From: Candidatus Stoquefichus sp.
Lineage (GTDB): Bacteria > Bacillota_I > Bacilli_A > Erysipelotrichales > Coprobacillaceae
Length of the DNA stretch: 64,000 nucleotides
Direction: 5' to 3'
Assembly: GCA_021768625.1 (NCBI GenBank)
Contig: JAETUM010000004.1
Coordinates: forward strand, 11,738-75,737
This document shows, one piece after another, positions 25,935 to 41,400 of this stretch. Below the pieces are notes generated by a model. That model saw only the letters and a list, made by a program, of their open reading frames with translations, had not been told where the DNA came from and searched no databases. The position numbers and the translations under genes are program-made. Numbering within the stretch: the first letter of the stretch is position 1; each line of letters opens with the position of its first letter.

Positions 25935-25993
25935 AGTCTTAAGAAGTAATAAAGAAGATTAATTATTTTTTAACAGTGAGGAAGGTGTAAGTC

Positions 25994-26203
25994 ATGGAAG
26001 ATAATTTTGATATTTCAAAATATCTTGGTAACAACAAGATTTATTCTAAAGACCATCCTAAAAAGTATAACGAGGATGAAGATATTTATGGACCAGCATT
26101 AGTTCCTGAAGATGTTTTATCAGGACAAAGAGAATGGAAATTAACAGGTGATATTAATGATCCTAGAAACAAAGAAGGTATTTTTTATTTAGAAGAGGAG
26201 TAA
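25994..26203 (+). CDS. hypothetical protein
   Basis: 69-aa ORF with GAGGAAGG SD. No motif recognised. Confidence 0.5.
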   Translation: MEDNFDISKYLGNNKIYSKDHPKKYNEDEDIYGPALVPEDVLSGQREWKLTGDINDPRNKEGIFYLEEE

Positions 26204-26215
26204 TTCCTCTTTTTA
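26194..26215 (+). terminator. hairpin plus T-run overlapping the stop codon
   Basis: Stem AGAGGA / TCCTCT, 5-nt loop containing the TAA stop, then TTTTT. Confidence 0.45.
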
Positions 26216-26236
26216 TTATGTGGAGGAGTTTTTATA

Positions 26237-26674
26237 ATGTGTAAAATAGGAGATATTATATTAATTGAAAAATTTAAAAATGAGCATGGAAAGGATGTAG
26301 GAATGCATCCTTTTATTGTTTTGAGTACAAAGAAGGGTGTTATTGAGTCAATGCCTTTAGATATGATAGCAGTATTATTGAGTTCAATAAAAGATGAAAA
26401 GAACAGAAAAAGGAACTTATCATATGAAGTTAATTATGAAGTGAAAAAAGAAGCTGGCTTAAAAAAGGATAGTTTTGTAAAAGGAAATCAAGTATATTGT
26501 TTTGATAGTAATAAAAGCGATTATAGACGAGTAGGTAGTATTGATGTGGATATATTCATGGAAATAAGAGAACATGTAAAAATGATGTTATTACAAGGTA
26601 AAGCTCAAATTATTACAACAAATCTAGAATTGGAAGATGATTCCAAAGAATTAGAAAATGAAATGAGTTTATAG
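26237..26674 (+). CDS. PemK/MazF-fold (SH3-like barrel) toxin-like protein
   Basis: MCKIGDIILIEKF...G.HPFIVLS...IAVLLSS...GLKKDSFVKGNQVYCFD...RVGSIDVDIF parallels the MazF pattern GD(I/V)..V.F....G.E....RP.(L/V)VLS...(I/V)..P(I/L)(T/S)S...S.V...Q(I/V).T(I/V)D. The 40-aa acidic C-terminal tail is atypical. Confidence 0.5.
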   Translation: MCKIGDIILIEKFKNEHGKDVGMHPFIVLSTKKGVIESMPLDMIAVLLSSIKDEKNRKRNLSYEVNYEVKKEAGLKKDSFVKGNQVYCFDSNKSDYRRVGSIDVDIFMEIREHVKMMLLQGKAQIITTNLELEDDSKELENEMSL

Positions 26675-26675
26675 G

Positions 26676-26691
26676 ATGGCAAACTTGCCAT
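26676..26691. repeat. element palindrome copy (ATGGCAAACTTGCCAT)
   Basis: Perfect palindrome 2 nt after the stop at 26674, ending 28 nt upstream of GTG 26720. Confidence 0.9.
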
Positions 26692-26719
26692 TTATTTTAA
26701 AATAAGGAGATGATTTATT

Positions 26720-27214
26720 GTGGATGATATACGAAAGAAGGTTGAACAAAGAGCGTGGAAAGAAGGCGAAACAGTTTATCAAGTTGTAGGAGAAATGCTT
26801 GATGATTTATCTACGGAAGATTTATTAAAACACTATATTAATGAATATGGCGAATCAGGTATTAGAGAATATATTATTGAACAACTCACTATGGGTGAAA
26901 TAAATTCGTTGAAGCAAAATGAAAAAAAACAAATCCTTCAATATACTTTAGACAATCTTTTAGCTGTACCAGATTTATTTGATAATGAACATATATATGA
27001 ACTTTCTACTGAAGATATAAACAAATTTGTAAGTTTATGGACTGAAAAAAGAGATCTACCACATGTTCTTTTATTAAGTGATTGCGTTGCTTTTGATAAT
27101 ACTGATGGGAATTGTTGGGGAGAAAATTTTGAGACTAGGGAACAAGCTATTTCATATTTGCATGGTGAATCTTATGAAGAAATAATGGGATTAGAGGATG
27201 AGTTAGGAATATAA
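26720..27214 (+). CDS. acidic hypothetical protein
   Basis: 164 aa, strongly acidic (D/E-rich). AAGGAG SD. GTG start. No motif recognised. Confidence 0.55.
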   Translation: MDDIRKKVEQRAWKEGETVYQVVGEMLDDLSTEDLLKHYINEYGESGIREYIIEQLTMGEINSLKQNEKKQILQYTLDNLLAVPDLFDNEHIYELSTEDINKFVSLWTEKRDLPHVLLLSDCVAFDNTDGNCWGENFETREQAISYLHGESYEEIMGLEDELGI

Positions 27215-27216
27215 AA

Positions 27217-28182
27217 ATGGGAAACACTTTAACAAAAGAAGAAATATCAGAACGTAGAAAAAAAGTAGCAGCATATCCTATATCTACATTAGCATGTGAC
27301 TTGGGATATTCTTTAAAACCTGCAGGTAAAAATTATATTACTCTTAAAGAACATGATTCGGTTATGATAAAAAAGAGTGATAATACATATCGTCGTTTTA
27401 GTGATGGATCCTGGGGAGATACCCTTTCTTTTTTGATGTGCTTTGGAGAAGAGGCAACAAATAACAAGAAATTTAAAAGTATTAGTTATTCCTTGTTTTA
27501 TCTAGAAAAGAAATTGGGTAAATCAAACAATAATGTTTTTAAACCCCCTGTTAAAAGTCAGCAGCTAAAATCAAAGAAACTTATTTTACCTAAAGCTGAT
27601 GAGGATAATAATCAAGTTATTGATTATCTTACTGAAAGAGGAATATCTAAAAACATAATTGATATGTTTATTGAAAAAAAGCTTCTGTATCAAGAGAAGG
27701 ATTGGAAAAAGAATTGTATATTTGTTTCTTATGAAAATGATAAACCAGTATTTGCGATGAGAAGATCTAGCAATTTTAAATATAAATTTGTACAAGATAT
27801 TGAAGGGTCTGATTATAGTCGAGGTTTTTTTATAAATAACAATAGTGATACTTTAGTTGTAACTGAAGCGTGCATTGAAACTATGTCATTGATGACTTTA
27901 AAAGAAAGTGATTTTGGAGAGTTTAACAGATCATCTTTTTTCTGTATGAACAGTATATATAAAAGTGATGGGCTTATTAATACATTAAAATCTTATAAAA
28001 AAATAAATCTTGTTATTTTAGCTTTAAATAATGATGAGATGGGAAGAAAGGCTACAGAAAGAATAAAGCAACTTATTCATGAAAAGGTAAAAAATATAAC
28101 GGTTTGGATTAAACTTCCAAAAGAAGAAGGATTTGATTGGAATGACACACTATGTAAATTAAAGAAGGAGATAAAAGTATGA
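27217..28182 (+). CDS. DUF3991 + Toprim domain protein (conjugative primase/topoisomerase-like)
   Basis: N-terminal ...GKNYITLKEHDSVMIKKSDNTYRRFSDGSWGDTLSFLM matches the DUF3991 pattern. The Toprim acidic residues are in VVTEACIETMSL and ALNNDEMGRKA. Confidence 0.7.
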   Translation: MGNTLTKEEISERRKKVAAYPISTLACDLGYSLKPAGKNYITLKEHDSVMIKKSDNTYRRFSDGSWGDTLSFLMCFGEEATNNKKFKSISYSLFYLEKKLGKSNNNVFKPPVKSQQLKSKKLILPKADEDNNQVIDYLTERGISKNIIDMFIEKKLLYQEKDWKKNCIFVSYENDKPVFAMRRSSNFKYKFVQDIEGSDYSRGFFINNNSDTLVVTEACIETMSLMTLKESDFGEFNRSSFFCMNSIYKSDGLINTLKSYKKINLVILALNNDEMGRKATERIKQLIHEKVKNITVWIKLPKEEGFDWNDTLCKLKKEIKV

Positions 28183-28529
28183 AAATTGCTATGATAAAGA
28201 TAAAAAATGGTATAAGAAAAAATATACGAAAAAATCAAAAAGAATATACGTTTATTTGTCCTCTTAATGGAATTTCTGTTGGTGATTATGTAGTGTGTGA
28301 TGTTAATGCTAATAGTAAGGATATTAGAGAACTCAATTTTAAAGTTGGAAGAGTTGAAAGTCTTATTGAAGACAAGAATGAAATCAAGAAAATATTAGAA
28401 CAACAAAAACCATATTCTTATATTGTATGTAAAGTAGGAGTTAAAGACTTTGAAAAAAGGTGTAATCAAATTCAAGAGTTAAAGTCTGCAAGAATGAATA
28501 AATATCATTTGATGGCTCAAAAAAAATAG
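28179..28529 (+). CDS. hypothetical protein
   Basis: 116-aa ORF with a 4-nt overlap (ATGA) with the Toprim gene. Confidence 0.55.
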   Translation: MKIAMIKIKNGIRKNIRKNQKEYTFICPLNGISVGDYVVCDVNANSKDIRELNFKVGRVESLIEDKNEIKKILEQQKPYSYIVCKVGVKDFEKRCNQIQELKSARMNKYHLMAQKK

Positions 28530-28532
28530 AAA

Positions 28533-28548
28533 ATGGCAACCTTGCCAT
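28533..28548. repeat. element palindrome copy (ATGGCAACCTTGCCAT)
   Basis: Perfect 7+2+7 palindrome with AAA/TTTT flanks, 4 nt after the stop at 28529. Confidence 0.9.
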
Positions 28549-28565
28549 TTTTAATTTATTTGTAT

Positions 28566-28624
28566 GCTGACCGTTCAATGGACAATGATAACAAAAAGGT
28601 GAAAACCGACGGGTACCCTTTCTC
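28566..28624 (+). promoter_or_regulatory. conserved ~60-nt leader motif, copy B
   Basis: GCTGACCGTTCAATGGACAATGATAACAAAAAGGTGAAAACCGACGGGTACCCTTTCTC. Same conserved blocks as copy A. The inner hairpin is replaced by GGT-GAAA-ACC (helix kept, sequence changed). Ends 28 nt upstream of ATG 28653. Confidence 0.5.
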
Positions 28625-28652
28625 TTAAGAAGAAATAAGAAAGGAAAAAGAA

Positions 28653-28835
28653 ATGAAAAGATTAATAATTAATGAAAATAAAAGTGCATTTGAATTTAGA
28701 CGAATAGTCAATTTTAGAGCAAATGAATTAATTAAAAATGGTTATATTCTTATTAGAATTAGATATAAATTAGATAAAAAAACAAATAGATACAAACACG
28801 CTGTTATTGAGTATAAAGCTAGGACAGTCTATTAA
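28653..28835 (+). CDS. small basic hypothetical protein
   Basis: 60-aa ORF with AAAGGAAAAAG SD-like stretch. No motif recognised. Confidence 0.4.
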   Translation: MKRLIINENKSAFEFRRIVNFRANELIKNGYILIRIRYKLDKKTNRYKHAVIEYKARTVY

Positions 28836-29254
28836 AAAGGATGAGTAAATTGAAAAAATGGATTATAACTGATAACCAAAAATATATGACAGTAGTTTTT
28901 GCTGATAATATATTTCATTATGAATATTTGTATGTTAGAAAAAATTTTGAAGTGTATCTGTAAGAAGTGCCTTTAAAAGAAGTGTTAAAAATACATAGAA
29001 ATACATTATTAAATATTATCTATGCTCCTATAACTTTGTTTAATTATTATTTTCATTGTGAAGTAGTCATTATCAGTGTTGATGAGGAAAAAATTAAAAG
29101 ATTTTATAAAGAACACAAATTGATTAAACCTACATATGTTTTTAACTGAACTAATTTGCATTAAAATGATATGAAGAGAGAATGAATAAGCAAAATATTT
29201 TTTAAGTAAAATCAATAAAAAAGAAATTTTATTAAAGGATAGAGGATGATTAAA

Positions 29255-29437
29255 TCATCCTCTAAAAATTTTGCTATCAACAAGTCTTTTTAAGTATTCT
29301 TTTGCTTCTTGTTCTGATGAAAATTCTAAATTGTAATTGTAGTATTTTCCATTTTTATCAATTACTGTGCCATTACTAACAGTTCCATCTGTGTTTAAAG
29401 TATAATTAAGAAGCCAAGAATTATAAGTTATCATCAT
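29255..29437 (-). CDS. small hypothetical protein (only convincing minus-strand gene in the element)
   Basis: 60 aa. Strong AAGGAGG SD on the minus strand about 10 nt before the ATG. Divergent from the lipoprotein gene. Confidence 0.55.
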   Translation of the reverse strand: MMITYNSWLLNYTLNTDGTVSNGTVIDKNGKYYNYNLEFSSEQEAKEYLKRLVDSKIFRG

Positions 29438-29542
29438 ATATATGTATACCTCCTTGGTATAAATTATACATCATTATATAAAATTATAAATAATTAAGTA
29501 TTATAATTTTGTAATACATATTATAGAAAGGAGACTTTAATA

Positions 29543-30181
29543 ATGAAAAAAATAGTATTAATAGTCATTTGTTTATTTTTAATAAGCTGCAATCACAACG
29601 AAAATTCTACTAGTGAACAAGAAATCAAACAACAAAATAGCATTGAAAAAACAATGATTTTGGAGGATGAATTTATAATGAGTTCTAATATTGGTTTAGA
29701 TTTCAATTATCCATCTCCTTCATTAAAATATTGGAATATGAATGGTCCAGACAATAATGACTGTACTTGTTTTACAAATAAGAAAAATGGTTCAAGAATT
29801 TATGTTTTAAAAAACATAGATTCTCAATTAAGTAGTAATAAAAATTTTAAATATAATCTTAATGGAAAAGATATACCTAAATATTTAGATCAGCAATTAA
29901 AAAAATATGCTGGATTTGAATATACGGATATAGAGATTGATAAAGACTACACTAAATATGAAACAAATATAAAATTTTATAACTGTTTTGGTGCAGTAAA
30001 GGATAAAGGAAAAGTATCTTATGTTTCAATGGCTTTTTTTCAAAGTCAATTCTATATCCCTGAAGTATATGGAATAGAAGCACCTTGTGTAATATTAATA
30101 TTATATGAAGATGAGAATTTGAAAGATGAAGTTAATGAAATGTTGAAAAAATTGAAAAATGGAATTTATTATCCAAAATGA
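29543..30181 (+). CDS. lipoprotein, unknown function (entry-exclusion candidate)
   Basis: Lipobox LFLISC at residues 11-16 after a basic n-region. AAGGAG SD. Confidence 0.6.
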   Translation: MKKIVLIVICLFLISCNHNENSTSEQEIKQQNSIEKTMILEDEFIMSSNIGLDFNYPSPSLKYWNMNGPDNNDCTCFTNKKNGSRIYVLKNIDSQLSSNKNFKYNLNGKDIPKYLDQQLKKYAGFEYTDIEIDKDYTKYETNIKFYNCFGAVKDKGKVSYVSMAFFQSQFYIPEVYGIEAPCVILILYEDENLKDEVNEMLKKLKNGIYYPK

Positions 30182-30196
30182 AATTAAATTTTTAAA

Positions 30197-30212
30197 ATGG
30201 CAAACTTGCCAT
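30197..30212. repeat. element palindrome copy (ATGGCAAACTTGCCAT)
   Basis: Perfect palindrome with AAAA/TTTTTT flanks, ending 30 nt upstream of the micro-ORF ATG at 30243. Confidence 0.9.
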
Positions 30213-30242
30213 TTTTTGTTTTTTTAGAAAGGAGACGGGAAT

Positions 30243-30292
30243 ATGAAACAATGGAGCAGGAGTGTTTTTTTATGACACCTCTTTGAGGTGTC
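30243..30292 (+). promoter_or_regulatory. leader L1: 10-codon micro-ORF whose TGA stop opens a hairpin GACACC-TCTTTGA-GGTGTC
   Basis: AAAGGAGA SD. ATG 30243, MKQWSRSVFL, TGA 30273-30275. Hairpin at 30274-30292. Same architecture as leader L2 at 38275-38330. Confidence 0.45.
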
Positions 30293-30342
30293 GATATAGA
30301 AAAGTGAAATAAGAATAGAAAATTGAAAGGGAGTAGAAAATA

Positions 30343-31527
30343 ATGAAAAGAATATTGAAAAAAATAAATGATATTGTATTAAGTTTAGAGATTATAGTGC
30401 TTATCGCAATTGTTATTTTAAATGTTTTTCTATGGTTCATAAATATGGAACATTATGTTGTGTTGAGTGGCAGCATGGAGCCTGAAATTCATGTAGGAGC
30501 AATGGTCTATGTTGATAAAAATATTTCTATTGAAGAAATCGAAACTGGAGATATCATTGCATTTCAAACCAATTCAGCATTAGTAACGCATAGAGTTGTT
30601 GAAAAAGATGATAAAACTAAAACTTTCATGACAAAAGGAGATGCAAATGAAGTTAATGACTTTGCTCCAGTAGATTATGATATGTATGTAGGAAAGACAG
30701 TATTTTCTATCCCATATTTAGGATATTTAATGAGCTATATTAATACTACAAGAGGAAAGATTATTATAGTTACAATAGTTTTGGCTATGTTTCTTTCTCA
30801 TTATCTATTAGATGATAATGAGGAAAATGAAGAAAATGAAAAAATGAAAAATAAAAAAACAGAGGAGAAAAGAAAAATGGAAAAGAAAAATTTAAAAAAA
30901 GGAATTGCTAGTTTATTATTATTAGGATGCGTTGCTGTTGGAGGAATTTCAGCTTATTTGACAGATATCGAAAATGCGAATAATGAATTTACAGTTGGTA
31001 AAATTAATATTGAATTAAAAGAAGATAACTGGAATCCTGAAGAAGGAAAAGATATCACACCAAATAAAGAGATCGCAAAAGATCCAACAGTTACAAACAT
31101 TGGAAAAAATGGAGCATATGTATTTGTGGAAGTAGAAGTTCCATATGCAAATATCGTTGTTGCAAATGATGATGGAACAAAGAAAGCAGCTGCTGATACT
31201 GAATTATTTAGCTATACAGTAAATAGTGGTTGGGTTGAATTAGGAACAGGAACAAAAGATACTGAAAAAGGTATTATTACGCATGTATATGCATATGCAA
31301 CAGATTTAAATACATTAACTGCTCTTTCTAAAGAAGCAACTACACCTTCAGTATTTGATAGTGTAAAAGTAGCTAACTTTGTAGAAAATCAAGGATTAGA
31401 AGAAACAGAAACAAGTATCAATGTCATTGCTAAAGCGATCCAAACAACTGATATTAACGGAGGAAAAACAGACGCAGCATCTGTATATGAAGTATTAAAT
31501 AATCAAGTTCCTACAAATGTAAAATAG
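30343..31527 (+). CDS. SipW-type signal peptidase I fused in frame to a TasA/camelysin-like SipW-substrate domain
   Basis: Residues 1-157: TM, SGSMEP (catalytic Ser), THRV (His), TKGDAN and a second TM, i.e. archaeal/SipW-type S26B peptidase. Residues 179-394 begin at internal ATG 30877 (AGAGGAG SD 9 nt upstream): MEKKNLKKGIASLLLLGCVAVGGISAYLTDIENANNEFTVG, a SipW-cognate signal. No stop codon separates the two parts. Confidence 0.7.
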   Translation: MKRILKKINDIVLSLEIIVLIAIVILNVFLWFINMEHYVVLSGSMEPEIHVGAMVYVDKNISIEEIETGDIIAFQTNSALVTHRVVEKDDKTKTFMTKGDANEVNDFAPVDYDMYVGKTVFSIPYLGYLMSYINTTRGKIIIVTIVLAMFLSHYLLDDNEENEENEKMKNKKTEEKRKMEKKNLKKGIASLLLLGCVAVGGISAYLTDIENANNEFTVGKINIELKEDNWNPEEGKDITPNKEIAKDPTVTNIGKNGAYVFVEVEVPYANIVVANDDGTKKAAADTELFSYTVNSGWVELGTGTKDTEKGIITHVYAYATDLNTLTALSKEATTPSVFDSVKVANFVENQGLEETETSINVIAKAIQTTDINGGKTDAASVYEVLNNQVPTNVK

Positions 31528-31546
31528 TTTTATAATTTTTTTATTG

Positions 31547-31584
31547 AGGTGTTTTCAAAAAGCTAAAAATGAAAACACCTTTTT
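31547..31584 (+). terminator. intrinsic terminator
   Basis: 10-bp stem AGGTGTTTTC / GAAAACACCT, 14-nt loop, then TTTT. Confidence 0.7.
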
Positions 31585-31611
31585 AATATTTATATAGAAA
31601 GGAAGATTATT

Positions 31612-32208
31612 ATGAAAACGAAAATAATGAAATATAAGATATGTTATATTTTAATTTTAATTGTTATCATGTTTTTTATATCTGGAATATTAGCAAATAT
31701 TACAGATATGTTAAGTGTGGTTAATAATCTTGCTGTAGATACGGTTGATATAGAATTAACTCAAAAGATGATAAGAAATAACAACCTGGTTGATTTTGAA
31801 AATAATGACGTTGTTTTACCTGGACAGAGTATTTCTTTTATTCCTAATATTTCTAATGCTGGAGTAGATTGTTATGTTCGAGTTAAACTGGAAACTGATG
31901 TATTATCTTATGATGATTTTCAAAGTTTCAATGAAAAATGGAAATATAATCCTTTAGATGATTATTTTTATTATACAGAAGTATTAAATGAAGAAAAAAC
32001 AATTGAAGTTTTTCAATCATTTACGATTCCTGATAGCTGGAGTAATGAAATGGCAGATGAAAGTTTTATTGTGAATATGACAGCCGAAGCAATTCAGTCT
32101 AGAAATTTCTATCCTAACTTTGATTCCAATGATCCGTGGAATGGCGAAAAGGCAGAAAAGACAGTTCGATCTAGGCTTGATAGAAAGCTGGTGAAGTCAG
32201 ATGTTTAA
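31612..32208 (+). CDS. TasA/camelysin-like protein with SipW-type signal
   Basis: N-terminal TM followed by ANITDMLSVVNNLAVDTVDIEL, then PGQSISFIPNISNAGVDCYVRVKL, typical of the TasA/CalY fold family. Confidence 0.6.
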   Translation: MKTKIMKYKICYILILIVIMFFISGILANITDMLSVVNNLAVDTVDIELTQKMIRNNNLVDFENNDVVLPGQSISFIPNISNAGVDCYVRVKLETDVLSYDDFQSFNEKWKYNPLDDYFYYTEVLNEEKTIEVFQSFTIPDSWSNEMADESFIVNMTAEAIQSRNFYPNFDSNDPWNGEKAEKTVRSRLDRKLVKSDV

Positions 32209-32902
32209 GAAATTAATTCTAACATTGTTTATTTCTGTTGCAACATTAATGAGTTCTACATTTGCATATGAAAATATGAATGTCGAATATATAGGAGATA
32301 CAGAAAAATTATTTAAAACAAGTGATGATTTCTTTGTTAATATTCCTACATTGTTACCAGGGGATACATATGAAGATAAAGCGGTTTTATTTAACAACTC
32401 AGATTTTAATATCAATCTTTATTTTAAAACAGAGCCTTTAGAAAAAGAAAAATATGAATTAGAAGAAGATTATAAACTTCTTGAGAAAATCAAATTATCT
32501 ATTTCAGTTAAAAAAGGCAAAGAAATAGTTAATGTTTATGATGGCTTTTTAGCTTCAAAGAATTTTGTGGATTTCAAAAAAATTGGATCTTACATTCCAA
32601 AAGAAAAAGCAGATTTCATTTTTAGATTGGAAGTTCCTACAGAATTAAAAAATGAATTTGATATGACTCGTACAAAAGTCAAATGGATTTTTGGAGTAGA
32701 ACCTGAAGAAATAGAAAAAGAAGTTTTAGGAGATGATTTTGAAAATCAATCGAATGTCAATATAGAAAAACAAACAATTCATTCATATATCAAAACTGGT
32801 GATAATATGGCCCCAGTATTATATGGAATGTTAGGAGCATGTGCTATATTGCTGATTCTTATTTTTAGAAAGGGAAAAGAAAATGATAAAAAAGATATTT
32901 AA
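32201..32902 (+). CDS. secreted protein with C-terminal sorting-signal-like anchor (IKTGDN + TM + RKGKEN)
   Basis: Signal peptide. LLPGDTYEDKAVLFNNSD beta-sandwich-like motif. C-terminal KTGD motif, hydrophobic helix and basic tail. Overlaps the upstream gene by 8 nt. Confidence 0.55.
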   Translation: MFKKLILTLFISVATLMSSTFAYENMNVEYIGDTEKLFKTSDDFFVNIPTLLPGDTYEDKAVLFNNSDFNINLYFKTEPLEKEKYELEEDYKLLEKIKLSISVKKGKEIVNVYDGFLASKNFVDFKKIGSYIPKEKADFIFRLEVPTELKNEFDMTRTKVKWIFGVEPEEIEKEVLGDDFENQSNVNIEKQTIHSYIKTGDNMAPVLYGMLGACAILLILIFRKGKENDKKDI

Positions 32903-33419
32903 CATACAGAAAGTCAAATACTTCGTTATTCTTTTTATTGTGATGTCAGCCTTTCTAACAATATTTGCATATTTAGCTGATATTGATAATGCTGGTAATG
33001 AATTTACAATTGCAAAACAAACAGTTGAAATCGTAGAGGAATTTGATCCACCAGAAAAATTGATACCTGGTATTTCTTTCACTAAAAAAGTAAATGTTAA
33101 AAATACAGGAACTATTCCCTGTTATGTTCGAGTCTTTGCACAAATCAATGACAGTACGATAGGGGATTATGTAGATATTGATTATGACATGATCAATTGG
33201 ACTATAAAAGATGATGGATATTACTATTACAATAAAATCCTTAATTCTAATGAATTGACAAGTCCATTATTTACAACTGTTAGTATTTCTAATGATATAG
33301 AACAGGATGCATTGAATGATTTTGATATTATTGTTTATACTGAATCTGTACAGGAAGAGGGATACTCAAATATAGATGATGCTTTTAGACTTGATAGAAA
33401 GGAGAATCGCAATGAATAA
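32883..33419 (+). CDS. TasA/camelysin-like protein with SipW-type signal
   Basis: FAYLADIDNAGNEFTIAKQTVEIVEEF...PGISFTKKVNVKNTGTIPCYVRVF matches the SipW-cognate signal and TasA core pattern. Confidence 0.65.
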   Translation: MIKKIFNIQKVKYFVILFIVMSAFLTIFAYLADIDNAGNEFTIAKQTVEIVEEFDPPEKLIPGISFTKKVNVKNTGTIPCYVRVFAQINDSTIGDYVDIDYDMINWTIKDDGYYYYNKILNSNELTSPLFTTVSISNDIEQDALNDFDIIVYTESVQEEGYSNIDDAFRLDRKENRNE

Positions 33420-36400
33420 GAAATTGAATAAGAAATTGAAAAGAATATTTCTGATGATGATGACTTTTTTAATAACTATCACGACATTTTATAATCATGA
33501 TGTTGTTAAAGCTGAAGATTCTTCTTTGAACGATTGGAGTATAAAGATCAATTGGGGAGATCCAAGTGAAAATATTCCAGATAACTGGAAACCTGTATAT
33601 AGTGATGAGGATACAGTTTCCGTTAAAACTCAATTGACGATTCAATATAAAGGTGATGGAACAAAAACATATGAACCAGGAGATGTCAAGATCTCAATGA
33701 ATGATATTGCTGATATATTTGATACTGAACTTGCTAAACAAGGCTGGGGATTTTGTCCATCTATAAATTCAATAATTGAAATAACTTCATCGGCTGATAA
33801 AAAAGGAGTGGCTGGTGTTGAAGATTGGGAATATACAACAACTGGAAGTTTTGATAATCATCAGATTCTTCTAAGTAATAAAAGCGAAATTTCTGGTTCG
33901 TTCACTTCAACTGTACAGTTCGTATTTAAGTTTAATAAATATTCATCAGTAAAAGCAATTAGGCTTTTTAAACCTCGTTATTCTAAGGATATTCAAGCAA
34001 CACTGACAGTTGATAATTCGATAAGAGAGTCGAATATAATCAACTACACATTTGATGGAGTACAGGATCAATACGAGATTAAATGGAATACAATGAAAAA
34101 TATAACTGAAGCAAGTGAGATTTTATCTAAGATACCACAAGATAAATGGAAAGATTATTATTTTTATAATACAAGTGTGCAAGGAGTCATCACAAGAAAT
34201 ACATTCAGTTTGAAAAATGGTTGGAGACTGGAATTTGATTATCCAGCTGATTTTATTTTAGGTGATCTTTCAAGTAACAACACAAATAAATCACATTCGA
34301 TTTTTACTAAAGGAGTTGGGGAAGATAAACTTAATTCTAATAACTTCTTTGGAACAGCTTTTCATTATTATCAGTATGGGACGTATTCCTATTTAAATAG
34401 ATATATAGCGATTCCTAAAGAATATTTAGACAAGAATAATGGTTATATTGATTTAAATGTAAAGATGTATGGAACATATACTAATGAAGATACTGAAAAA
34501 TTGATAAGCAGTGATACGACAAGGATCAATTTGAATGATGCTAAAGTTTCTTTTGAAGGAGATTTATATGCAACAGAAAAAGATAGTTTATCTATGAATG
34601 AAAACATTCCCTATATTAATATTATGAGGAAAAATTTCGATAAGGATAAAAATGAGTTGGATTATGAAAATGAGCAAGTCTTCATGTTAAAAGCAACAGC
34701 TGTTTACTATGGAAAAAAATATAATCTGATATTGGGTGATGATTTGCAGTATTTTGTATATGATGATAATTCTTTTCGAAGGCTTGAAAATAATGAAAGA
34801 TTAGTCAATAAAGTTTCTTTAAATAAAATCGGAAGCAAAAAAACATATGCTTATGAAATTTATGGAAAGAAGTTAAATGGTGATGGAACTTACGAAAAAA
34901 TAAAAGAGGGTTCTATAACAGGAAATACAAAGATAACTTTCGATGACTGGTATTATGATATCAAGGTAAAATATCTCAATTTGGAGGAGACGATTAATAA
35001 TGGAAGGCTTGTATATCTTTATTACAAAATTTTAGATAATGAAAGTCTTGATGACAATAAAAGACCAGCTAAATTATACAACTCTTCTTACCTTCAGATT
35101 GAAATGGCAGATGAAAATGGAGAGAATAATTATATTCATCTTGATTATGATGTTAATACTAATATAGAATCATTAAAAAGTGATCTAGAGGAATATTCTT
35201 TATCCAATTATGGAGAAACTGTGCTAAGAGGAATAAATATTTTAAATATTAGGTCGAAATATGTCATGTTAAGTTCAAATAAGAATAGTTGTACATTAGA
35301 CTATAGTGATGATGAATTGTATAAAAAGGATGTCATAAGCAGTGATTATATTCAAAATTATTCGTTAGGAAATACAGAATTAAAAGAATTTAAAATCAAA
35401 TTAACTGTACCTGATTATTTGGAAATTAATCATAATGATGTGAAATTATATATCAATGATCAAGCTTATAGAATCGAAGAGTTAGAAGCAAAGGGAATTA
35501 TTGTTTCATATGAAAAAAATAATTTAGATGGACAATATGAAATGATATACTCTATAGATGCAAATAAATCTCCAATCAAGCTCAAAGAGAATAACATCAA
35601 TAATGATTTTAATATTCAATATGATGTTCATTTATCATATGATGATTATGTCATGTATGGATTGCAGGGTAAAACAAGTTCGATTCAACATGAGCTATAT
35701 GATGTTGTATTAGTTGATGGAGACAATCAAGAGAAGATTGATTGTTTTAATTCATTTACAAGAGTGAATGATAGTATTGTTATTCCTAATGTTCCATTAG
35801 GTTCATTTCAAGGTATTCAAAAAGAAGTGAAAACAGATAGCAATAGCTATACAAAGCAACAGGCTGTAACAAATGCTGGAGAAGATTATTCATATAAGTT
35901 AAAAATTTCTTCAGGACAGACAAGAATGGCTAATATCATCTTATATGATAATTTAGAGAATAATGAGCTAGATACCTGGAAAGGTGAATTTAAGGGTATA
36001 GATATGTCTGTTTTAGAAGGTTTAAATGTGGATGTGTCGAAGTTCAAGATTTACTATTCAATAAATAGAAATCAATCTAGAGACTTAGAAACTAATGGTT
36101 GGATACTTTCTTCTGATTACAGTGGAGATATATCCGAAGTTAAGTCTATTGCAATTGATATGCAGGATTATGTGTTAACTCCTAATCAGATAGGATATAT
36201 AGAAGTGTTAATGAAAGCTCCTGAAGATAATGTTAAATTAGGATCAATAACGAAGAATCAATATTTTTCTTCTTATAAAGAATATGATGAGAAAGATGAA
36301 TCTCAGTCAAATCCTCTAAAAGAAACGATAGATCTTCCTTCAAATATTACATCTTTGTCATTTGGAAAGATCATTCCTACAAAAGAGCTGACAATAACAA

Positions 36401-36813
36401 AAACTATTTATAAGGAAGATATTAATTTTGCTTATGGTAATCCAGTTGCAATCTTTAAAATTGATGGTACAGATATAGAAGGTAATTCTATTATTAAATA
36501 TGTGAGTGCTGAGTTTACAGAGGAATTTGTTAATAATGAAACAGGAATCGAAGAAAATGGATTAACAAGAATTGACATGAGTCAAAAGGTCGCATTACCT
36601 TTGGGAACTTATACTGTTACAGAAGTCGATAATCTAAGATATAAATTAATAGAAATTGACACTATAAATGCAGAATCTAAGACTACAAATAGTGTCACAT
36701 TTGACTTAGAAAAAGATGATGATGAAAGTGTAAGATTTACAAATAGATGTACAAATTACAATGACTTATCAGATAGTGATATTGTCATAAATGAAATTAA
36801 GAAAGGAAATTAA
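33412..36813 (+). CDS. large (1133 aa) secreted protein, putative fibre tip/adhesin with C-terminal Cna-B-like beta-sandwich
   Basis: Start moved to ATG 33412 (GGAG SD): MNKKLNKKLKRIFLMMMTFLITITTFYNHDVVKA signal peptide. C-terminal ...LTITKTIYKED...LPLGTYTVTEVDNLRYKL resembles Cna-B/SpaA-type domains. No anchor motif. Confidence 0.6.
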   Translation: MNKKLNKKLKRIFLMMMTFLITITTFYNHDVVKAEDSSLNDWSIKINWGDPSENIPDNWKPVYSDEDTVSVKTQLTIQYKGDGTKTYEPGDVKISMNDIADIFDTELAKQGWGFCPSINSIIEITSSADKKGVAGVEDWEYTTTGSFDNHQILLSNKSEISGSFTSTVQFVFKFNKYSSVKAIRLFKPRYSKDIQATLTVDNSIRESNIINYTFDGVQDQYEIKWNTMKNITEASEILSKIPQDKWKDYYFYNTSVQGVITRNTFSLKNGWRLEFDYPADFILGDLSSNNTNKSHSIFTKGVGEDKLNSNNFFGTAFHYYQYGTYSYLNRYIAIPKEYLDKNNGYIDLNVKMYGTYTNEDTEKLISSDTTRINLNDAKVSFEGDLYATEKDSLSMNENIPYINIMRKNFDKDKNELDYENEQVFMLKATAVYYGKKYNLILGDDLQYFVYDDNSFRRLENNERLVNKVSLNKIGSKKTYAYEIYGKKLNGDGTYEKIKEGSITGNTKITFDDWYYDIKVKYLNLEETINNGRLVYLYYKILDNESLDDNKRPAKLYNSSYLQIEMADENGENNYIHLDYDVNTNIESLKSDLEEYSLSNYGETVLRGINILNIRSKYVMLSSNKNSCTLDYSDDELYKKDVISSDYIQNYSLGNTELKEFKIKLTVPDYLEINHNDVKLYINDQAYRIEELEAKGIIVSYEKNNLDGQYEMIYSIDANKSPIKLKENNINNDFNIQYDVHLSYDDYVMYGLQGKTSSIQHELYDVVLVDGDNQEKIDCFNSFTRVNDSIVIPNVPLGSFQGIQKEVKTDSNSYTKQQAVTNAGEDYSYKLKISSGQTRMANIILYDNLENNELDTWKGEFKGIDMSVLEGLNVDVSKFKIYYSINRNQSRDLETNGWILSSDYSGDISEVKSIAIDMQDYVLTPNQIGYIEVLMKAPEDNVKLGSITKNQYFSSYKEYDEKDESQSNPLKETIDLPSNITSLSFGKIIPTKELTITKTIYKEDINFAYGNPVAIFKIDGTDIEGNSIIKYVSAEFTEEFVNNETGIEENGLTRIDMSQKVALPLGTYTVTEVDNLRYKLIEIDTINAESKTTNSVTFDLEKDDDESVRFTNRCTNYNDLSDSDIVINEIKKGN

Positions 36814-36857
36814 TAATCCTTTCTTTTTTCTTAAATAAAACAGGGAGGAAGATATAA

Positions 36858-37427
36858 ATGAAACGGAAAATATTCATGGTTGGAATAATGGCAGCAGTCA
36901 TGATTGGAACAATTAGCTTACCTTGCAATTCGGTAACAGGTATTCAAGCTGCCGTTATAAAAGCACAACCCAAGGTTAGAAATTTGAATTCTGCTGAAAT
37001 AGAAGTTTTTAGAAGCAAACTATATAGCAGTATCAATGCGTATAGAAAGTCAAATAAAAGAAAGACACTTTCTAAAAATACTACATTACAGAAATCAGCA
37101 ACACTGCGTGCAAAAGAAGTTGTAAAAAAATGGTCCCATACAAGACCAAATGGGTTGAGATGTTTTACAGCATTTGCGACTTATAGAAAGACTGGTGTTA
37201 CAAATGGAGAAAATTTAGCTAAAGTTACATTTTCTGCAAAAAAATCATATAATAAAGATTATCTCAACAGAGCGGTTCAAGGTATGATGAAAAAACTAAA
37301 ATCCTCACAGACTCATAGAAATGTCATGTTGAATAATGTATATAGTAAATATGGAATTGGCATTACCGTCAAAAAGAGTGGTAATACAATCACCGTGTAC
37401 TCTGTTCAACACTATTCTAGCAAGTAG
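36858..37427 (+). CDS. CAP/SCP (YkwD-like) domain secreted protein
   Basis: Signal peptide. INAYRKSNKRKTLSKNTTLQKSATLRAKE...WSHTRPNG...GENLA...H..NVM...Y...G matches the CAP-domain pattern. Confidence 0.65.
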   Translation: MKRKIFMVGIMAAVMIGTISLPCNSVTGIQAAVIKAQPKVRNLNSAEIEVFRSKLYSSINAYRKSNKRKTLSKNTTLQKSATLRAKEVVKKWSHTRPNGLRCFTAFATYRKTGVTNGENLAKVTFSAKKSYNKDYLNRAVQGMMKKLKSSQTHRNVMLNNVYSKYGIGITVKKSGNTITVYSVQHYSSK

Positions 37428-37442
37428 AAGGGAGGGGTAAAA

Positions 37443-37607
37443 TTGTCTGATCACAAAACAGAAGAATATCATCAGGAAAAACACTTTCCTGATGATTCAC
37501 ATTTATTTCTTAATCGTTTATCTGTAATTGTTATTGGTAGAGAAGATAGCAGTAACATACATTATATAGAACAGAGTATTAAGAATTTAAAAGAAAAGTA
37601 TAAATAG
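37443..37607 (+). CDS. 54-aa hypothetical protein (TTG start)
   Basis: Strong GGGAGGGG SD 7 nt upstream of TTG 37443. Below the ORF-track cutoff. Confidence 0.35.
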   Translation: MSDHKTEEYHQEKHFPDDSHLFLNRLSVIVIGREDSSNIHYIEQSIKNLKEKYK

Positions 37608-37646
37608 TTATTTTTATACAAAAAATGCAATATACAAGAAAAGTTT

Positions 37647-37674
37647 TTTGATTTGTTAGTATTATATAGTATAA
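37647..37674 (+). promoter_or_regulatory. sigma-A-type promoter
   Basis: TTGATT (37647-37652), 16-nt spacer, TATAAT (37669-37674), upstream of ATG 37703. Confidence 0.4.
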
Positions 37675-37702
37675 TATTATTAGAAGAGGAAAGGATGATA
37701 TT

Positions 37703-38212
37703 ATGAAAAAATTACTTATAATTATTATGTGTAGTATGTTAATAGCTGGATGTTCATCAACTGATAATAAAACAGCAGAATCTCATTCAAAACCTGTGCA
37801 ACAAGAAATAGTTAAAAAAGATCAAACAGAACAGGAAAAGACTGTTGATAAGAAAGAAGAAACAAAAACAGAAAATAAGAATAAAACTGAAACAGTCAAA
37901 AAAGAAGAAAAGAAAGAAAATCAAAAGAAAACAACTAAAAAGACAACAGATTCTACAAGTAAAAAAACATCTACGAAAAAGAAAACAAACACAACTAAAA
38001 AGTCAACCACAAAGAAAAAAACAACTCCAAAAAAGAAAAAAACAGATAGTATTACTGGAAAAGCCATTGATTATGGATGTATTGATTGTGGAAAACATTT
38101 TAAAACAGAGAAAGAAATTAAAAAACATCTAAAGGAATCTGGACATGGACAATATAGTATTGCATATGAAACTGATGAAGAATGGCCGGAAGATTGGGTT
38201 AGTATAGAATAG
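37703..38212 (+). CDS. lipoprotein with K/T-rich low-complexity linker and C2H2-zinc-finger-like C-terminus
   Basis: Lipobox LIAGCS. About 90 aa of KKT/KKE low complexity. C-terminal CIDCGKHFKTEKEIKKHLKESGH fits C-x2-C-x3-F-x5-hydrophobic-x2-H-x5-H. Confidence 0.6.
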   Translation: MKKLLIIIMCSMLIAGCSSTDNKTAESHSKPVQQEIVKKDQTEQEKTVDKKEETKTENKNKTETVKKEEKKENQKKTTKKTTDSTSKKTSTKKKTNTTKKSTTKKKTTPKKKKTDSITGKAIDYGCIDCGKHFKTEKEIKKHLKESGHGQYSIAYETDEEWPEDWVSIE

Positions 38213-38274
38213 TTATTTAAAGTAAGGTTTTAAAATCCTTGCTTTTTTTATTTATTTGAAAGGAGAAAAGAAAA

Positions 38275-38330
38275 ATGGATTGGTTTTATATATATCAAAG
38301 CAAATATGGCTGACAACCTTTGAGTTGTCA
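38275..38330 (+). promoter_or_regulatory. leader L2: 12-codon micro-ORF whose TGA stop opens a hairpin TGACAAC-CTTTGA-GTTGTCA
   Basis: AAAGGAGA SD. ATG 38275, MDWFYIYQSKYG, TGA 38311-38313. Hairpin at 38311-38330. Parallels leader L1. Confidence 0.45.
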
Positions 38331-38362
38331 ACATGGAATATATTTATTTCATAAATTAATAG

Positions 38363-38389
38363 GTAGGTCATTTGACCTACTTTTCTTTT
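38363..38389 (+). terminator. terminator/attenuator hairpin in the adhesin leader
   Basis: Stem GTAGGTC / GACCTAC followed by TTTTCTTTT, located 45 nt upstream of the adhesin ATG. Confidence 0.55.
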
Positions 38390-38434
38390 ATGAAAATATA
38401 TAGTTTTAAAATCAATATGAAAGGATTTGAGAAA

Positions 38435-41400
38435 ATGAAATATTTTGAAAAATTAAAAGGGATTTTAGATAAATCATGGAAAATATTATTGATTTTTACT
38501 ATGGTCATATCAATGTTAGCTCTAAAAGGAAATAACAGTATTAAAGACGTTATAGCTTATAGTGGCTATCCTAAAAGTATAAATGTCAAGTATCATGGAA
38601 AATTGACTTATAGTGGAAGCACAGTAGGAGATTTTACTGTGAATGGCAAGCAAGCATTTTGCATGGCTCATGAACTGCCTACTCCTGGCAATGATACAAA
38701 AATGACAGCGGAGATATATGATAATGTAACTATTAGAAAAGTTCTTTATTATGGCTGGAGTGGTCCAAAACAATGGAGTGGATTTAAAAGCAGGGCACAA
38801 GGTGTTGTTGTAACTTCACTAACATTATCACATTATTATTATGGTACAAAGGAACGTACAATTCAAAAAGATTTTATGGATTACATAAAAAACAAAACTG
38901 TACCAAATTATAAAGTTAAATTTTCCACATCATCGGTCAATGCCTATATGAGTGGAACTATTCAAAGAACACCTAGTGTTACATTAAACAGTGGAATGAC
39001 TGATAATAGTGTGAGTGTTACATTACAGAATGATGTAACATATGTAGATGAAACACATAATAAAAGGCAAAAGGGTGGAACAGTCAAGATTTATGGAAAG
39101 ACAAAATTTCACTTAGAAGCACCGTTAACTAAGAACTTAGGGACATGGTCTACTGGTAATAAATCACAGGGAGCAATTTTTGCACCTGTTCTCAGTCAAA
39201 CAAAAATAGGCAAAGTTCAGCCCATTGGTTATCCAGATTGGGCAGTTGATCCAATGGATATTACTTCATTAAAAGTCAAATGGGTTGATTTAGGAAACTT
39301 GAAACTTGGTAAACAGGAAAAAGAAACTGGTAAAATGGTTGCTGATACTTATTTTAAAGTTTCTTATAATAGTGATATGTCCAACTACAAAGGAATATGG
39401 AAAACAGGAAAAGATGGATATGTAACTATCAATAACCTTAAAGCAGGAGCAGTCTATGTTCAAGAGATAAAAGTTCCAGATCATTTGATATTGGATAAGA
39501 CAATTCGTAAGGTTACAATTGAAAAAGGAAAAACTGTATCTTTTACAAACAAAAATAATCTTAAACCAACCAGTTTAAAGCTTGGAAAACAAGAACTAGA
39601 AACTGGTAAGATGGTTGCAGGAGCATTATTTAAAGTTTCTAAAAATTCAGATATGTCAAATTATAGAGGTATCTATAAAACAGGAAGTGATGGTTATGTC
39701 ACTTTATCTAACCTCTTGCCAGGTACATATTATATACAGGAGGTTGGTGTTCCAGCACATTTAATCTTGGATAAGACTATTCATAAAGTAACTGTAACTT
39801 ATGATAAACCGGGAGTATTTATAAAGAAAAACAACTTAAGAAAAGGTAATCTGAAACTTGGAAAACAAGACGAAAAGAATAGAATGGTTCCTAATACTTT
39901 ATTCAAAGTTTCACAAAAATCAGATATGTCAAATTATAGAGGTATCTATAAAACAGGAAGTGATGGTTATGTGACTTTATCTAATCTTTTGCCAGGTACT
40001 TATTATGTTCAAGAGGTTGGTGTTCCAAATCATTTGATCTTAGATAAGACTATTCATAAAGTTGTTGTTAATTATGATAAGACAACAACATTTATGAAAA
40101 CAAATAGGGTTAAACCTGCAAGATTAGATATTATTAAAACTGGTGAGGTTTTGACAGATTATAAAGATGGAAATTTCGTTTTTGAAGAAAAAGGACTTCC
40201 AGATATGGAAGTACAGATTTTTGCAGAAGAAAAGATTTTTGATTATATGACTGGTAAGACTTATCAAAAAGGAGACCTTGTCAAAACTGTGAGAACAGGA
40301 AAAGACGGAAAGATTAGTGTTAATCTTCCATTAGGTAAATATCGTATACATGAGTATAAAGCTCCTTTAGGCTTTGTTTTATCAAGTGTTGATCAATATG
40401 TTACTTTATCAAGTAGCAGTCCAACACAAACTTTAGTGACTGCTAGTAAGAGCTTCTATAATGAAAGACAAAAGGTTAAAATCAATGCTATTAAAGTTGA
40501 TGGAATGACACAAGAAAGACTTCAAAATGCAGTTATCGGATTGTATGCAAATGAAGACATTTATAATTATCAAGGAAAGAAATTAGTTGATAAAGGAACA
40601 CTTCTTTTATCAAAAGAGACGGATAAAAATGGAAATATTGTCTTTGATATAGATTTACCATTAGTTGATGTATATCTTGAAGAAATACAACCACCAGAAG
40701 GCTATGTAAAAATTGATAAAAAATATTATATAGATATTAAGTCAACAGACCAAACAACACAGATATACAACTTTTCAAGAACAATCGTTAATAACCCTAA
40801 ACCAGTTGAAATATCTAAGAAAGCTATTACAGGTAGTGAAGAATTAGAAGGAGCAAAATTACAGATTATAGATGTTCTAACAAAAGAGGTTGTTGAAGAA
40901 TGGATTTCTACTGATAAACCACACATGACAAATGAGTTGCTGGTAGGAAGAAGATATATATTAAGGGAAATTTTATCTCCTGATGGATATACAATAGCAA
41001 ATGATATAGAGTTTACAGTTAATGGAGATAAAAGTGTTCAAAAAGTTACAATGATTGATGAATTAACAAAGGTTGATATTTCAAAACAAGATGCAACAAA
41101 TGGAAAAGAACTTCCAGATGCTAAATTAGAAATTATAGATCCAATAACAAATAAAGTTGTTAGAGAACATATTTCCACAAATGAGCCTTGGATTATCGAA
41201 GGTTTGATTTGGAATAAAGAATATATATTAAGAGAAACCCTTGCTCCTGATGGGTATGAAACAGCAAATGAAATTCGTTTTACGGTTGGCAAAGATAACA
41301 AAGTTGTAATGAAAGATGAGCCTCTAGAACCTGAAGAATTAGGAGAAGAACCTGTATTTACAAATATTCAAGTCAATAAAATTGACAGTCAGACAAAAGA

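Follow-up and report, generated by a model that had tools for sequence, protein, structure and literature searches.

A Candidate TasA/BsaA-Type Fibre Operon in the Transfer Region of a Conjugative Element from Candidatus Stoquefichus sp.

A Putative Fibre Operon among Transfer Genes

We analyzed a stretch of 64,000 nucleotides from Candidatus Stoquefichus sp. (NCBI GenBank assembly GCA_021768625.1, contig JAETUM010000004.1, positions 11,738 to 75,737 of the forward strand). This whole stretch is called the window; its G+C content is ~27%, and all coordinates given without a locus name refer to it. At positions 30343–36813, it carries a gene module that we read as an operon for a TasA/BsaA-type, wall-anchored, and adhesin-bearing fibre, situated within an integrative conjugative element's transfer region and aiding mating-pair cohesion. 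We estimate the probability of this reading at about one half. Its parts differ in strength: judged from the encoded proteins, the module is likely to build a fibre, and the chance that this fibre contributes to mating rather than being cargo is a little less than even.

The module's long open reading frames (ORFs) all lie on the + strand, with overlapping or abutting ends. They encode six proteins (table 1): a SipW-type signal peptidase, TasA-like 1, TasA-like 2, a 233-aa anchor protein, TasA-like 3, and an 1133-aa secreted protein. A first interpretation made from the DNA alone (the sequence-only reading) had proposed a co-directional, overlapping gene set including a signal peptidase and carried by a conjugative element. 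Both propositions hold. The six proteins were recovered at their proposed positions, the peptidase is recognized by TIGR02228, and the window contains family matches typical of a conjugative element, namely ParA, ParB, DUF3991-Toprim, VirB4, a MobL relaxase, and VirD4.

Three TasA-Like Proteins and a Putative Sorting-Signal Anchor

As had been suggested, three of the proteins are TasA/camelysin-like, according to matches to PF12389 and TIGR04090 and to profile–profile comparison (hhalign). Using family alignments built from related loci, hhalign joined the three families with probabilities of 99.1–99.7%, the TasA-like 2 family being linked to those of TasA-like 1 and TasA-like 3 at 99.1% and 99.7%, respectively. 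On these profiles, the three proteins are members of one mutually homologous family. TasA-like 1, for which 76 homologue clusters were found in a collection of 5.8 billion proteins, the majority of them pre-annotated as PF12389, is the probable major fibre subunit. The three proteins are known here by sequence; the predicted structures described below cover the 233-aa and 1133-aa proteins only.

The translations display the cleavage-region motifs AYLTD, ANITD, AYLAD, and AYEN in the module proteins, TasA-like 1 reading ...GGISA/YLTD, and sorting signals are absent from the C-termini of TasA-like 1–3. The invariant residues of the TasA-like 1 family, in an alignment of 32 sequences (A1), include D30, N36, F38, E49, and K68, and its N-terminal strand carries the conserved motif TNxFTVG. 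The family alignment of TasA-like 3 likewise contains a conserved Asn (NEF), Glu (EIVEEF), and Lys (FTKK). This Asn/Glu/Lys set of TasA-like 1 and TasA-like 3 may be the counterpart of the isopeptide triad of BsaA, a TasA-like protein of Clostridium perfringens. TasA-like 2 keeps the donor-type Asn (VVNNL) and has a Phe at the position of the acceptor Lys. In most relatives, TasA-like 2 and the anchor are one polypeptide; among the fused proteins with a locatable motif, 41 of 58 have a Lys at the acceptor position, and the split forms of the clade of the window are without it.

The 233-aa protein was modeled with AlphaFold2 from 17 sequences (mean predicted local distance difference test [pLDDT] of 68, 73–89 in the core); its spacer is disordered. 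Foldseek returned a single PDB match at E ≤ 1e-3, the cryo-electron microscopy structure of the TasA fibre (8aur, E 3.3e-4, probability 1.0). We consider with moderate confidence that this predicted structure makes it a fourth TasA-fold protein. Profile–profile comparison did not join the anchor family to the TasA families, the link coming from the fold search alone, and the anchor-family profile gave nothing meaningful against solved structures. Among 1.84 billion representatives, 478 are related to the anchor domain at E ≤ 1e-3. The best 150 of these 478 comprise 108 proteins fused to TasA-like 2 and 39 of the short form. Such fusions are found, for instance, in the related loci L003, L004, L005, L008, and L009, and the fused protein measures 360–480 aa in many loci.

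A wall-sorting-like tail had been noticed on this protein. It consists of IKTGDN, a hydrophobic helix, and the basic end RKGKENDKKDI, and the corresponding pattern, x-[VPI]-[KQR]-T-G-D with a hydrophobic segment and basic residues after it, is present at the C-terminus of 146 of the 164 anchor-family members. Similar C-terminal signals (FAKTSDN, IIKTED, and EVKTGDN) are found on the thioester adhesins encoded by the same elements. We take the anchor signal to resemble the motifs (S/P)PxTG and NVQTG, which occur in substrates of clostridial sortase B. The window anchor matches no LPXTG model; among 62 relatives, five match NF053819 (EF2685/EF0750 family sortase-dependent surface protein) and two the LPXTG model TIGR01167. 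The sortase motif TLxTC is absent from all frames of the window and of the first 13 related loci (L001–L013), so that the anchor would need a host sortase. Attachment to the wall by such an enzyme is likely. The fibre had been proposed to be sortase independent. This description suits the predicted polymerization and not the anchor, whose putative sorting signal is of the sortase type.

A Signal Peptidase Fused in Frame to Its Predicted Substrate

TasA-like 1 had been taken as a separate gene starting at 30877. This part of the sequence-only reading must be corrected, as this ATG is an internal codon of a 394-aa ORF that begins with sipW. The peptidase domain corresponds to the first ~155 residues and the TasA/camelysin-family part starts at residue 179; a GGAG ribosome-binding site is kept 9 nt upstream of the internal ATG. 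The SipW motifs SGSMEP, THR, and GDAN can all be read from the translation. Against the equivalog model of Bacillus SipW (NF046067), the score is 90.6 for a cutoff of 190, and the window SipW is therefore not an equivalog of the Bacillus protein.

The fused ORF is 100% identical in the independent Logan assemblies L014 and L015. Across 14,010 bp, window positions 25058–39067 are matched without difference by the Logan assembly of run SRR13008594, and the assembly of run SRR13008615 contains the fused ORF too. A 395-aa protein of the European Nucleotide Archive (P0256) is 94% identical to the fusion and has the same junction, the differences lying only in the first ~55 residues. In the related loci L001 and L002, sipW has its own stop codon and TasA-like 1 is separate, starting in another frame. 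The fusion would be topologically workable, with the C-terminal membrane helix of SipW followed by a cytoplasmic charged linker and then by the N-in signal peptide of TasA-like 1. This signal peptide would be cut by the peptidase domain of the same polypeptide.

Outside the window, a 502-aa representative of the anchor family (P0161) is a TasA-like 2–anchor protein that ends in a SipW domain. Peptidase–substrate fusions thus recur, P0161 being a second, independent kind. They represent a natural construct for work on SipW specificity.

A Large Secreted Protein without an Anchor of Its Own

The last gene of the module, starting at 33412, encodes an 1133-aa protein that we named Big1133. It had been described as a large secreted protein ending in a Cna-B-like domain, in agreement with its AlphaFold2 model (8 sequences, mean pLDDT of 65.7). 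The model is a string of beta domains in which residues 991–1113 form the CnaB-like domain, with Lys, Glu, and Asn at the usual positions of an internal isopeptide bond (LTITK, YTVTE, and RFTN). The last 19 residues (1116–1134 of the model) are unstructured, with pLDDT values <50; S1121, D1124, I1125, N1128, and G1133 are nonetheless invariant. Big1133 has no Pfam match and no sorting signal, and its sequence retrieved nothing meaningful among solved structures. Foldseek ranked the Ig-like domains of PrgB, the aggregation substance of pCF10 (8beg, E 1e-12), first among PDB matches, followed by the C-terminal domains (C123) of antigen I/II (AgI/II) and then by the pilins SpaA and SpaD and by Cna. 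These matches have low TM-scores, which is to be expected when the model is multi-domain and flexible. The resemblance to PrgB and AgI/II is limited to the Ig-like stalk, and no polymer-adhesin (PAD/V) domain was detected in Big1133.

Only six homologues of Big1133 were found, two of them in the loci L001 and L002. Its C-terminal domain and tail (F-x-N … [YW]D.[LYF]S[HD]..[VI].[VI]N.h) recur at the end of large proteins encoded by many other modules. These proteins vary in their N-terminal parts (thioester domain plus SpaA, AgI/II-like, SpaA alone, or leucine-rich repeats), and none has a sorting signal. For an adhesin without anchor, always encoded beside TasA-like genes and always with the same end domain, the best explanation is that this end attaches it to the fibre. 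Profile–profile comparison did not join this domain to the TasA families. The Big1133 tail (…LSDSDIVINEIKKGN) was also considered as a mimic of the TasA donor strand (YLTDIENANNEFTVGK). This candidate failed a test with a position-specific scoring matrix (PSSM), and donor-strand mimicry by the tail is speculation.

A Widespread Operon Recurrently Linked to Type IV Secretion System Genes

Loci L001 and L002 contain syntenic copies of the set SipW, TasA-like 1, TasA-like 2, anchor, TasA-like 3, large protein, and a CAP protein, flanked upstream by a thioester adhesin and downstream by a VirB6-like protein, VirB4, and a cell-wall hydrolase. Scans with a TasA-like 1 alignment narrower than A1 detected seven loci in species genomes (gut Lachnospiraceae, Eubacterium, Blautia, and Sellimonas), together with 80 metagenome loci, of which many carry a human gut label. 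Nearly all scanned loci encode SipW, TasA-like 1, TasA-like 3, and TasA-like 2/anchor and usually also a large secreted protein, in variable order. The set of SipW, TasA-like 1, TasA-like 2, anchor, TasA-like 3, and large protein is kept in >20 lineages. The module is a widespread operon of gut Clostridia.

We clustered the TasA-like 1 proteins at 85% identity and searched 10 kb of flanking DNA in the ~22 clusters for which enough was available. Genes of a type IV secretion system (T4SS) were found within this distance in six of them, belonging to at least three clades. In addition to the window and to the L001 and L002 cluster, these are L011, in which T4SS pilin-like and VirB6-like genes lie directly 3′ of the module; L050, L054, and L055, with VirD4, VirB4, and lysozyme-CHAP genes directly before it; L058, with VirB4 after it; and L059, L077, L081, and L087, with the order ParA, thioester adhesin, module, and then VirD4. 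Plasmid replication genes are present by the module in two further clusters (RepA_N in L042 and Rep3 in L013). The 10-kb flank undercounts the linkage, since VirB4 is 19 kb from TasA-like 1 in the window itself. In a rough neighbor-joining tree, the split-type modules (window, L001, L011, and L012) form one clade, and the other T4SS-linked modules fall into at least two further clades, beside chromosomal ones.

The largest and most abundant clusters are chromosomal, as is the majority of the sampled lineages, with DNA polymerase I (PolA), MatE, acetate kinase, EF-G, YqfD, MurJ, MiaB, and FtsH among the neighbors. The association with T4SS genes, when present, is within transfer regions; on these counts, it is therefore recurrent and not exclusive. 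The gene orders and the tree suggest repeated recruitment of the module by conjugative elements of gut Clostridia, into their transfer regions. The idea that it belongs to the conjugation apparatus is thus supported by its recurrence by T4SS genes and not by its chromosomal location in most lineages.

Sequenced plasmids of cultured bacteria do not carry the module, as tblastn against 72,556 plasmids was nearly empty: TasA-like 1 retrieved no record and TasA-like 3 five, mostly non-mobilizable Enterococcus megaplasmids. SipW retrieved 24, of which 16 are haloarchaeal by genus. A near-identity DNA search with positions 28000–42000 gave zero matches in plasmid and phage collections. Regulatory genes accompany some modules. 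In L055 (16877–20223), a histidine kinase and an AraC-type response regulator, reminiscent of bsaRS, are encoded beside it; an extracytoplasmic function (ECF) sigma factor with a DUF4367 protein is encoded next to the module of L003 (5872–7064), and ECF sigma factors are encoded in L038 (3346–9502).

The Conjugative Setting in the Window

The hairpin just 5′ of sipW (table 1) is the probable upstream limit of the transcription unit of the module. The same consensus scan predicted a further terminator-like hairpin 3′ of the thioester adhesin, another candidate hairpin lies around 37470, and the module may be a transcription unit of its own, with hairpins flanking it. Between the upstream hairpin and the start of sipW lies a perfect 8-bp inverted repeat (30274–30292, GACACCTC-TTT-GAGGTGTC), which could be an operator or an RNA element.

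The CAP/YkwD gene directly follows the large-protein gene in the window, L001, L002, and L014, and its product may be a member of the module. Between it and the thioester adhesin gene, positions 37703–38212 encode a lipoprotein. It has a long low-complexity linker rich in Lys and Thr, and its C-terminus carries a motif resembling a C2H2 zinc finger. The sequence-only reading had recognized the gene at 38435 as that of a classical Cna-B adhesin. It indeed encodes a thioester domain and eight SpaA domains and ends with FAKTSDN, a transmembrane segment, and a basic tail. With its thioester domain, SpaA repeats, and location in the transfer region, it has the features of adhesins of the TIE type. 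Homologues flank the module in L001, L002, L011, and L059.

Table 1. Features of the Fibre Module and of the Transfer Region in the Window
Feature	Positions	Strand	Evidence or characteristics
Terminator-like hairpin and T-run	30194–30215	+	Consensus scan; just 5′ of sipW
SipW–TasA-like 1 single ORF, 394 aa	30343–31527	+	Stop codon absent between both parts
SipW part, endoplasmic reticulum/archaeal-type signal peptidase I	30343–30876	+	TIGR02228, 101.3 bits (cutoff 51.85); PF10502/Peptidase_S26
TasA-like 1	30877–31527	+	PF12389 (Peptidase_M73), 23.8 (cutoff 22.5); SipW-cognate signal peptide TIGR04088, 24.5 (cutoff 19)
TasA-like 2	31612–32208	+	Direct matches weak, below cutoffs; linked by hhalign
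Anchor protein, 233 aa	32201–32902	+	Signal peptide ...STFA/YEN; beta-sandwich 28–168; spacer; IKTGDN; transmembrane helix 204–225; basic tail
TasA-like 3, BsaA-family member	32883–33419	+	TIGR04090, 63.3 (cutoff 60)
Big1133, large secreted multi-domain beta protein, adhesin-like, 1133 aa	33412–36813	+	Ordinary signal peptide; C-terminal CnaB-like domain; conserved tail
CAP/YkwD-family secreted protein	36858–37427	+	PF00188, 42 bits
Adhesin with thioester domain and 8 SpaA domains	38435–41776	+	PF20610, 32.8 (cutoff 27); PF17802, 326 bits
T4SS pilin-like small protein	42064–42405	+	PF18895, 24.2 bits, under model cutoff 26.6
VirB6/TrbL-like protein, 581 aa	in 42064–44165	+	phmmer match to TrbL_4 protein of L001, 2e-22
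VirB4-type ATPase and lysozyme-like/NlpC/P60 cell-wall hydrolase	50167–53079	+	Family matches
MobL relaxase, one further ORF, and VirD4 coupling protein	56050–60147	+	Family matches

Other genes are found around the transfer functions. An establishment and anti-restriction block (44319–48383) lies inside the transfer region and encodes ArdC, DprA, an N6/N4 DNA methylase, and a PcfM/DpnD-like protein. Between the cell-wall hydrolase of the T4SS and the MobL relaxase lies the gene of a TIR-domain protein (53995–55041), and a pentapeptide-repeat protein and an HNH endonuclease (60166–61907) are encoded directly 3′ of VirD4. Upstream of the DUF3991-Toprim gene are genes for a single-stranded DNA-binding protein and a PemK-type toxin (25555–26674), according to the annotation of the identical contig L014. 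The first 19 kb of the window (1–19 kb) contain teichoic-acid genes, with a 1274-aa ORF without Pfam match (7562–11386) just upstream of three CDP-glycerol glycerophosphotransferase genes. Genes for tRNA-Lys (19367–19442) and tRNA-Ser (20628–20718) separate the teichoic-acid genes from the first genes of the element, which encode a 310-aa protein, ParA, and ParB. The element is therefore probably integrated beside the tRNA-Ser gene, which would mark its left junction. No integrase was seen within the 64-kb window.

Proposed Assembly and Function

The mechanism that we propose combines features of TasA and BsaA fibres with those of wall-anchored adhesins. SipW, as one polypeptide with its first substrate, would cleave the special signal peptides from the TasA-like proteins. 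Each subunit, its N-terminal strand thus freed, would then insert this strand into the beta-sandwich of the next one by donor-strand complementation, as for TasA and BsaA. In TasA-like 1 and TasA-like 3, the Asn/Glu/Lys set could lock the inserted strand by an intermolecular isopeptide bond, as in BsaA. TasA-like 2 and the 233-aa TasA-fold protein would constitute the cell-proximal end, where a host sortase might link the [IV]KTGD signal to the wall or, alternatively, this signal might retain the fibre in the membrane. The fibre would display Big1133, held by the conserved CnaB-like domain and tail at the C-terminus of this protein. The fibre would stick donor cells to other cells or to surfaces and stabilize mating pairs alongside the thioester adhesin encoded at 38435. 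Gene content, family membership, conservation, fusions, and the recurring linkage to T4SS genes are the observed part of this scheme; polymerization, isopeptide lock, subunit order (anchor, shaft, and tip), sortase anchoring, adhesin attachment, and the effect on transfer are inferred. A more ambitious formulation, in which some conjugative elements of gut Clostridia encode their own pilus-like organelle to capture recipients, is tentative and rather unlikely. This organelle, a TasA-type fibre processed by SipW, assembled by donor strands, possibly locked by isopeptide bonds, anchored in the wall at its base, and bearing a large adhesin, would be a functional analogue of conjugative pili made from an entirely different protein family, in bacteria considered to be without pili.

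The characterized relatives provide the basis for this scheme. C. perfringens BsaA forms SDS-resistant (sodium dodecyl sulfate-resistant) polymers in a SipW-dependent manner, the adjacent sortase not being needed (PMC7395162). It has been modeled with donor-strand exchange and an N35–K74 isopeptide lock that requires E56 (preprint PMC11580942). Members of the BsaA family often occur as several paralogues near LPxTG, SpaA, sortase, and signal-peptidase genes, and an LPXTG-bearing BsaB homologue of some strains was speculated to be a fibre anchor (PMC11580942). A link between this kind of matrix and conjugation has been observed in B. subtilis, where the TasA and exopolysaccharide matrix strongly boosts ICEBs1 transfer (PMC6158512). 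The thioester adhesin TIE of pLS20 is required for efficient mating in liquid (PMC8092201); for adhesins of this type, such a requirement is known from pLS20 only.

Several observations weigh against the fibre or against its part in mating. The match between the Asn/Glu/Lys residues and the BsaA triad was made through motifs, without alignment to BsaA itself, and sequence and profile searches with TasA-like 1 gave nothing meaningful among solved structures. TasA-like 1 and TasA-like 3 reach the cutoffs of TasA/BsaA family models at the sequence level; as to the fold, the anchor matches 8aur with a TM-score of only 0.39, on a medium-confidence model. With the donor-region PSSM, the highest rank went to the tail of the large protein in the window, L002, and L007 only; its scores there were low, and those of control proteins were higher. 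The equivalent domain of the L011 large protein is internal and not C-terminal. BsaB, a second TasA-like protein of C. perfringens, is reported to form dimers only (PMC11580942), and paralogues thus need not be shaft subunits. Finally, the terminator-like hairpins around the module mean that co-transcription with the T4SS genes is not required, and most sampled lineages have the module on the chromosome.

This last distribution bears on the first alternative, that the module is cargo and not apparatus. The same kind of fibre would serve host colonization or biofilm formation, on gut mucus or particles, as an accessory trait without a role in DNA transfer. As the module is not specific to conjugative elements, this is a serious rival and a distinct possibility. 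Its location among housekeeping genes in the most abundant lineages fits this explanation, as do the dedicated regulators of certain modules (the ECF sigma factors of L003 and L038 and the two-component system of L055), the hairpins that bracket it in the window, and the role of the characterized relatives TasA and BsaA as biofilm matrix proteins. Against cargo speak the position of the module between transfer genes, rather than at the edge of the element, in the window, L001, L002, L011, L055, L058, and L059, and a T4SS link that arose in at least three TasA-like 1 clades with differing gene orders. Moreover, the module adjoins thioester adhesins of the type required for pLS20 mating.

It is improbable that there is no fibre, the secreted TasA-like proteins staying monomeric or forming small oligomers (as a surface coat or as camelysin-like or spore-associated proteins) and the large protein being free or otherwise retained as an adhesin. 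The reported BsaB precedent of dimers instead of long oligomers and the empty profile searches against solved structures are compatible with this possibility. Nevertheless, the N-terminal donor-type motif and the Asn/Glu/Lys residues are strictly conserved in the TasA-like 1 family, TasA-like 3 reaches the curated BsaA-family cutoff, and a TasA-like-fold anchor accompanied by anchorless adhesins is hard to explain without assembly. A decaying or inactive copy, in which the sipW–TasA-like 1 fusion and the split of TasA-like 2 from the anchor would be lesions, in line with the separate genes of L001 and L002, the fused relatives, and the missing acceptor Lys of TasA-like 2, is very improbable, because every ORF is intact with overlaps as in coupled translation, the fusion is topologically sound, keeps its internal ribosome-binding site and ATG, and is retained in a 94%-identical variant, the split form is common to a whole clade at 55–70% identity with a signal peptide on the anchor, and another lineage fuses TasA-like 2–anchor to SipW.

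Significance and Comparison with Known Systems

A recent review (2025) states that Gram-positive conjugation systems encode no conjugative pili and rely on wall-anchored adhesins (PMC12857230), in line with the adhesin-based picture from which the sequence-only reading had started. Full-text searching of the literature found no paper tying SipW/TasA-type modules to T4SS loci, and the BsaA preprint mentions neither conjugation nor mobile elements (PMC11580942). The nearest known system is the BsaA operon. If the fibre aids mating, the picture of Gram-positive conjugation without pili (PMC12857230) changes for a large group of gut bacteria, in which resistance and fitness genes are spread by their elements. 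Apart from conjugation, the module would define an uncharacterized type of Gram-positive surface fibre that combines several TasA-like paralogues with a subunit of predicted TasA fold, which bears a putative sorting signal, and with anchorless adhesins that have a common C-terminal domain and tail. It would also extend the "exchange and lock" idea developed for BsaA to heteropolymeric, adhesin-bearing structures.

On the predicted proteins, the module is a variant of the TasA/BsaA operon whose fibre would be heteromeric, with a putative sorting-signal anchor and an attached adhesin. Like C. perfringens sipW-bsaABC(RSD), it starts with a SipW-type peptidase followed by TasA-like paralogues and includes a large secreted protein; its TasA-like 3 reaches the BsaA-family cutoff, and it has a conserved Asn/Glu/Lys set that may correspond to the BsaA triad. 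It differs by its three paralogues and separate TasA-fold anchor, by the fusion of sipW to the first subunit, by the lack of an adjacent sortase gene, and by its location inside a T4SS region. The large protein of the bsa operon, BsaC, is a vWA protein, whereas that of the window has an Ig-like stalk and a CnaB end. With B. subtilis tapA-sipW-tasA, the module shares a dedicated SipW, a TasA-superfamily subunit with a SipW-type signal peptide, and an accessory anchoring or initiation protein (TapA there, putatively TasA-like 2 and the anchor here). In contrast, B. subtilis TasA is without the isopeptide triad (PMC11580942), and its operon, which is chromosomal and under biofilm regulation, has neither a sorting-signal anchor nor a large adhesin. 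Archaeal bundling pili and cannulae, compared here by family membership, share an archaeal-type signal peptidase and, as predicted for the module, the chaperone-free donor-strand assembly of TasA-superfamily subunits; they are archaeal and have no wall anchor, linked adhesin, or T4SS.

The base, shaft, and adhesin logic recalls sortase-assembled pili (SpaA/Ebp), as do the CnaB/SpaA-like domains, the putative sorting signal at the base, and the likely covalent links between subunits. However, the shaft subunits of the window carry neither sorting signal nor pilin motif, there is no pilus sortase gene, and the predicted joining relies on strand insertion and an Asn–Lys bond and not on sortase transpeptidation. 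The genes of PrgB (pCF10) and TIE/p34 (pLS20) belong to T4SS operons, and mating-pair formation is promoted by these proteins; they are single polypeptides and not polymers, and Big1133, in contrast to them, has no anchor of its own. Finally, the module proteins are unrelated to the VirB2-type pilins of T4SS conjugative pili (VirB2/TraA); a separate small PF18895-like gene lies downstream of the thioester adhesin.

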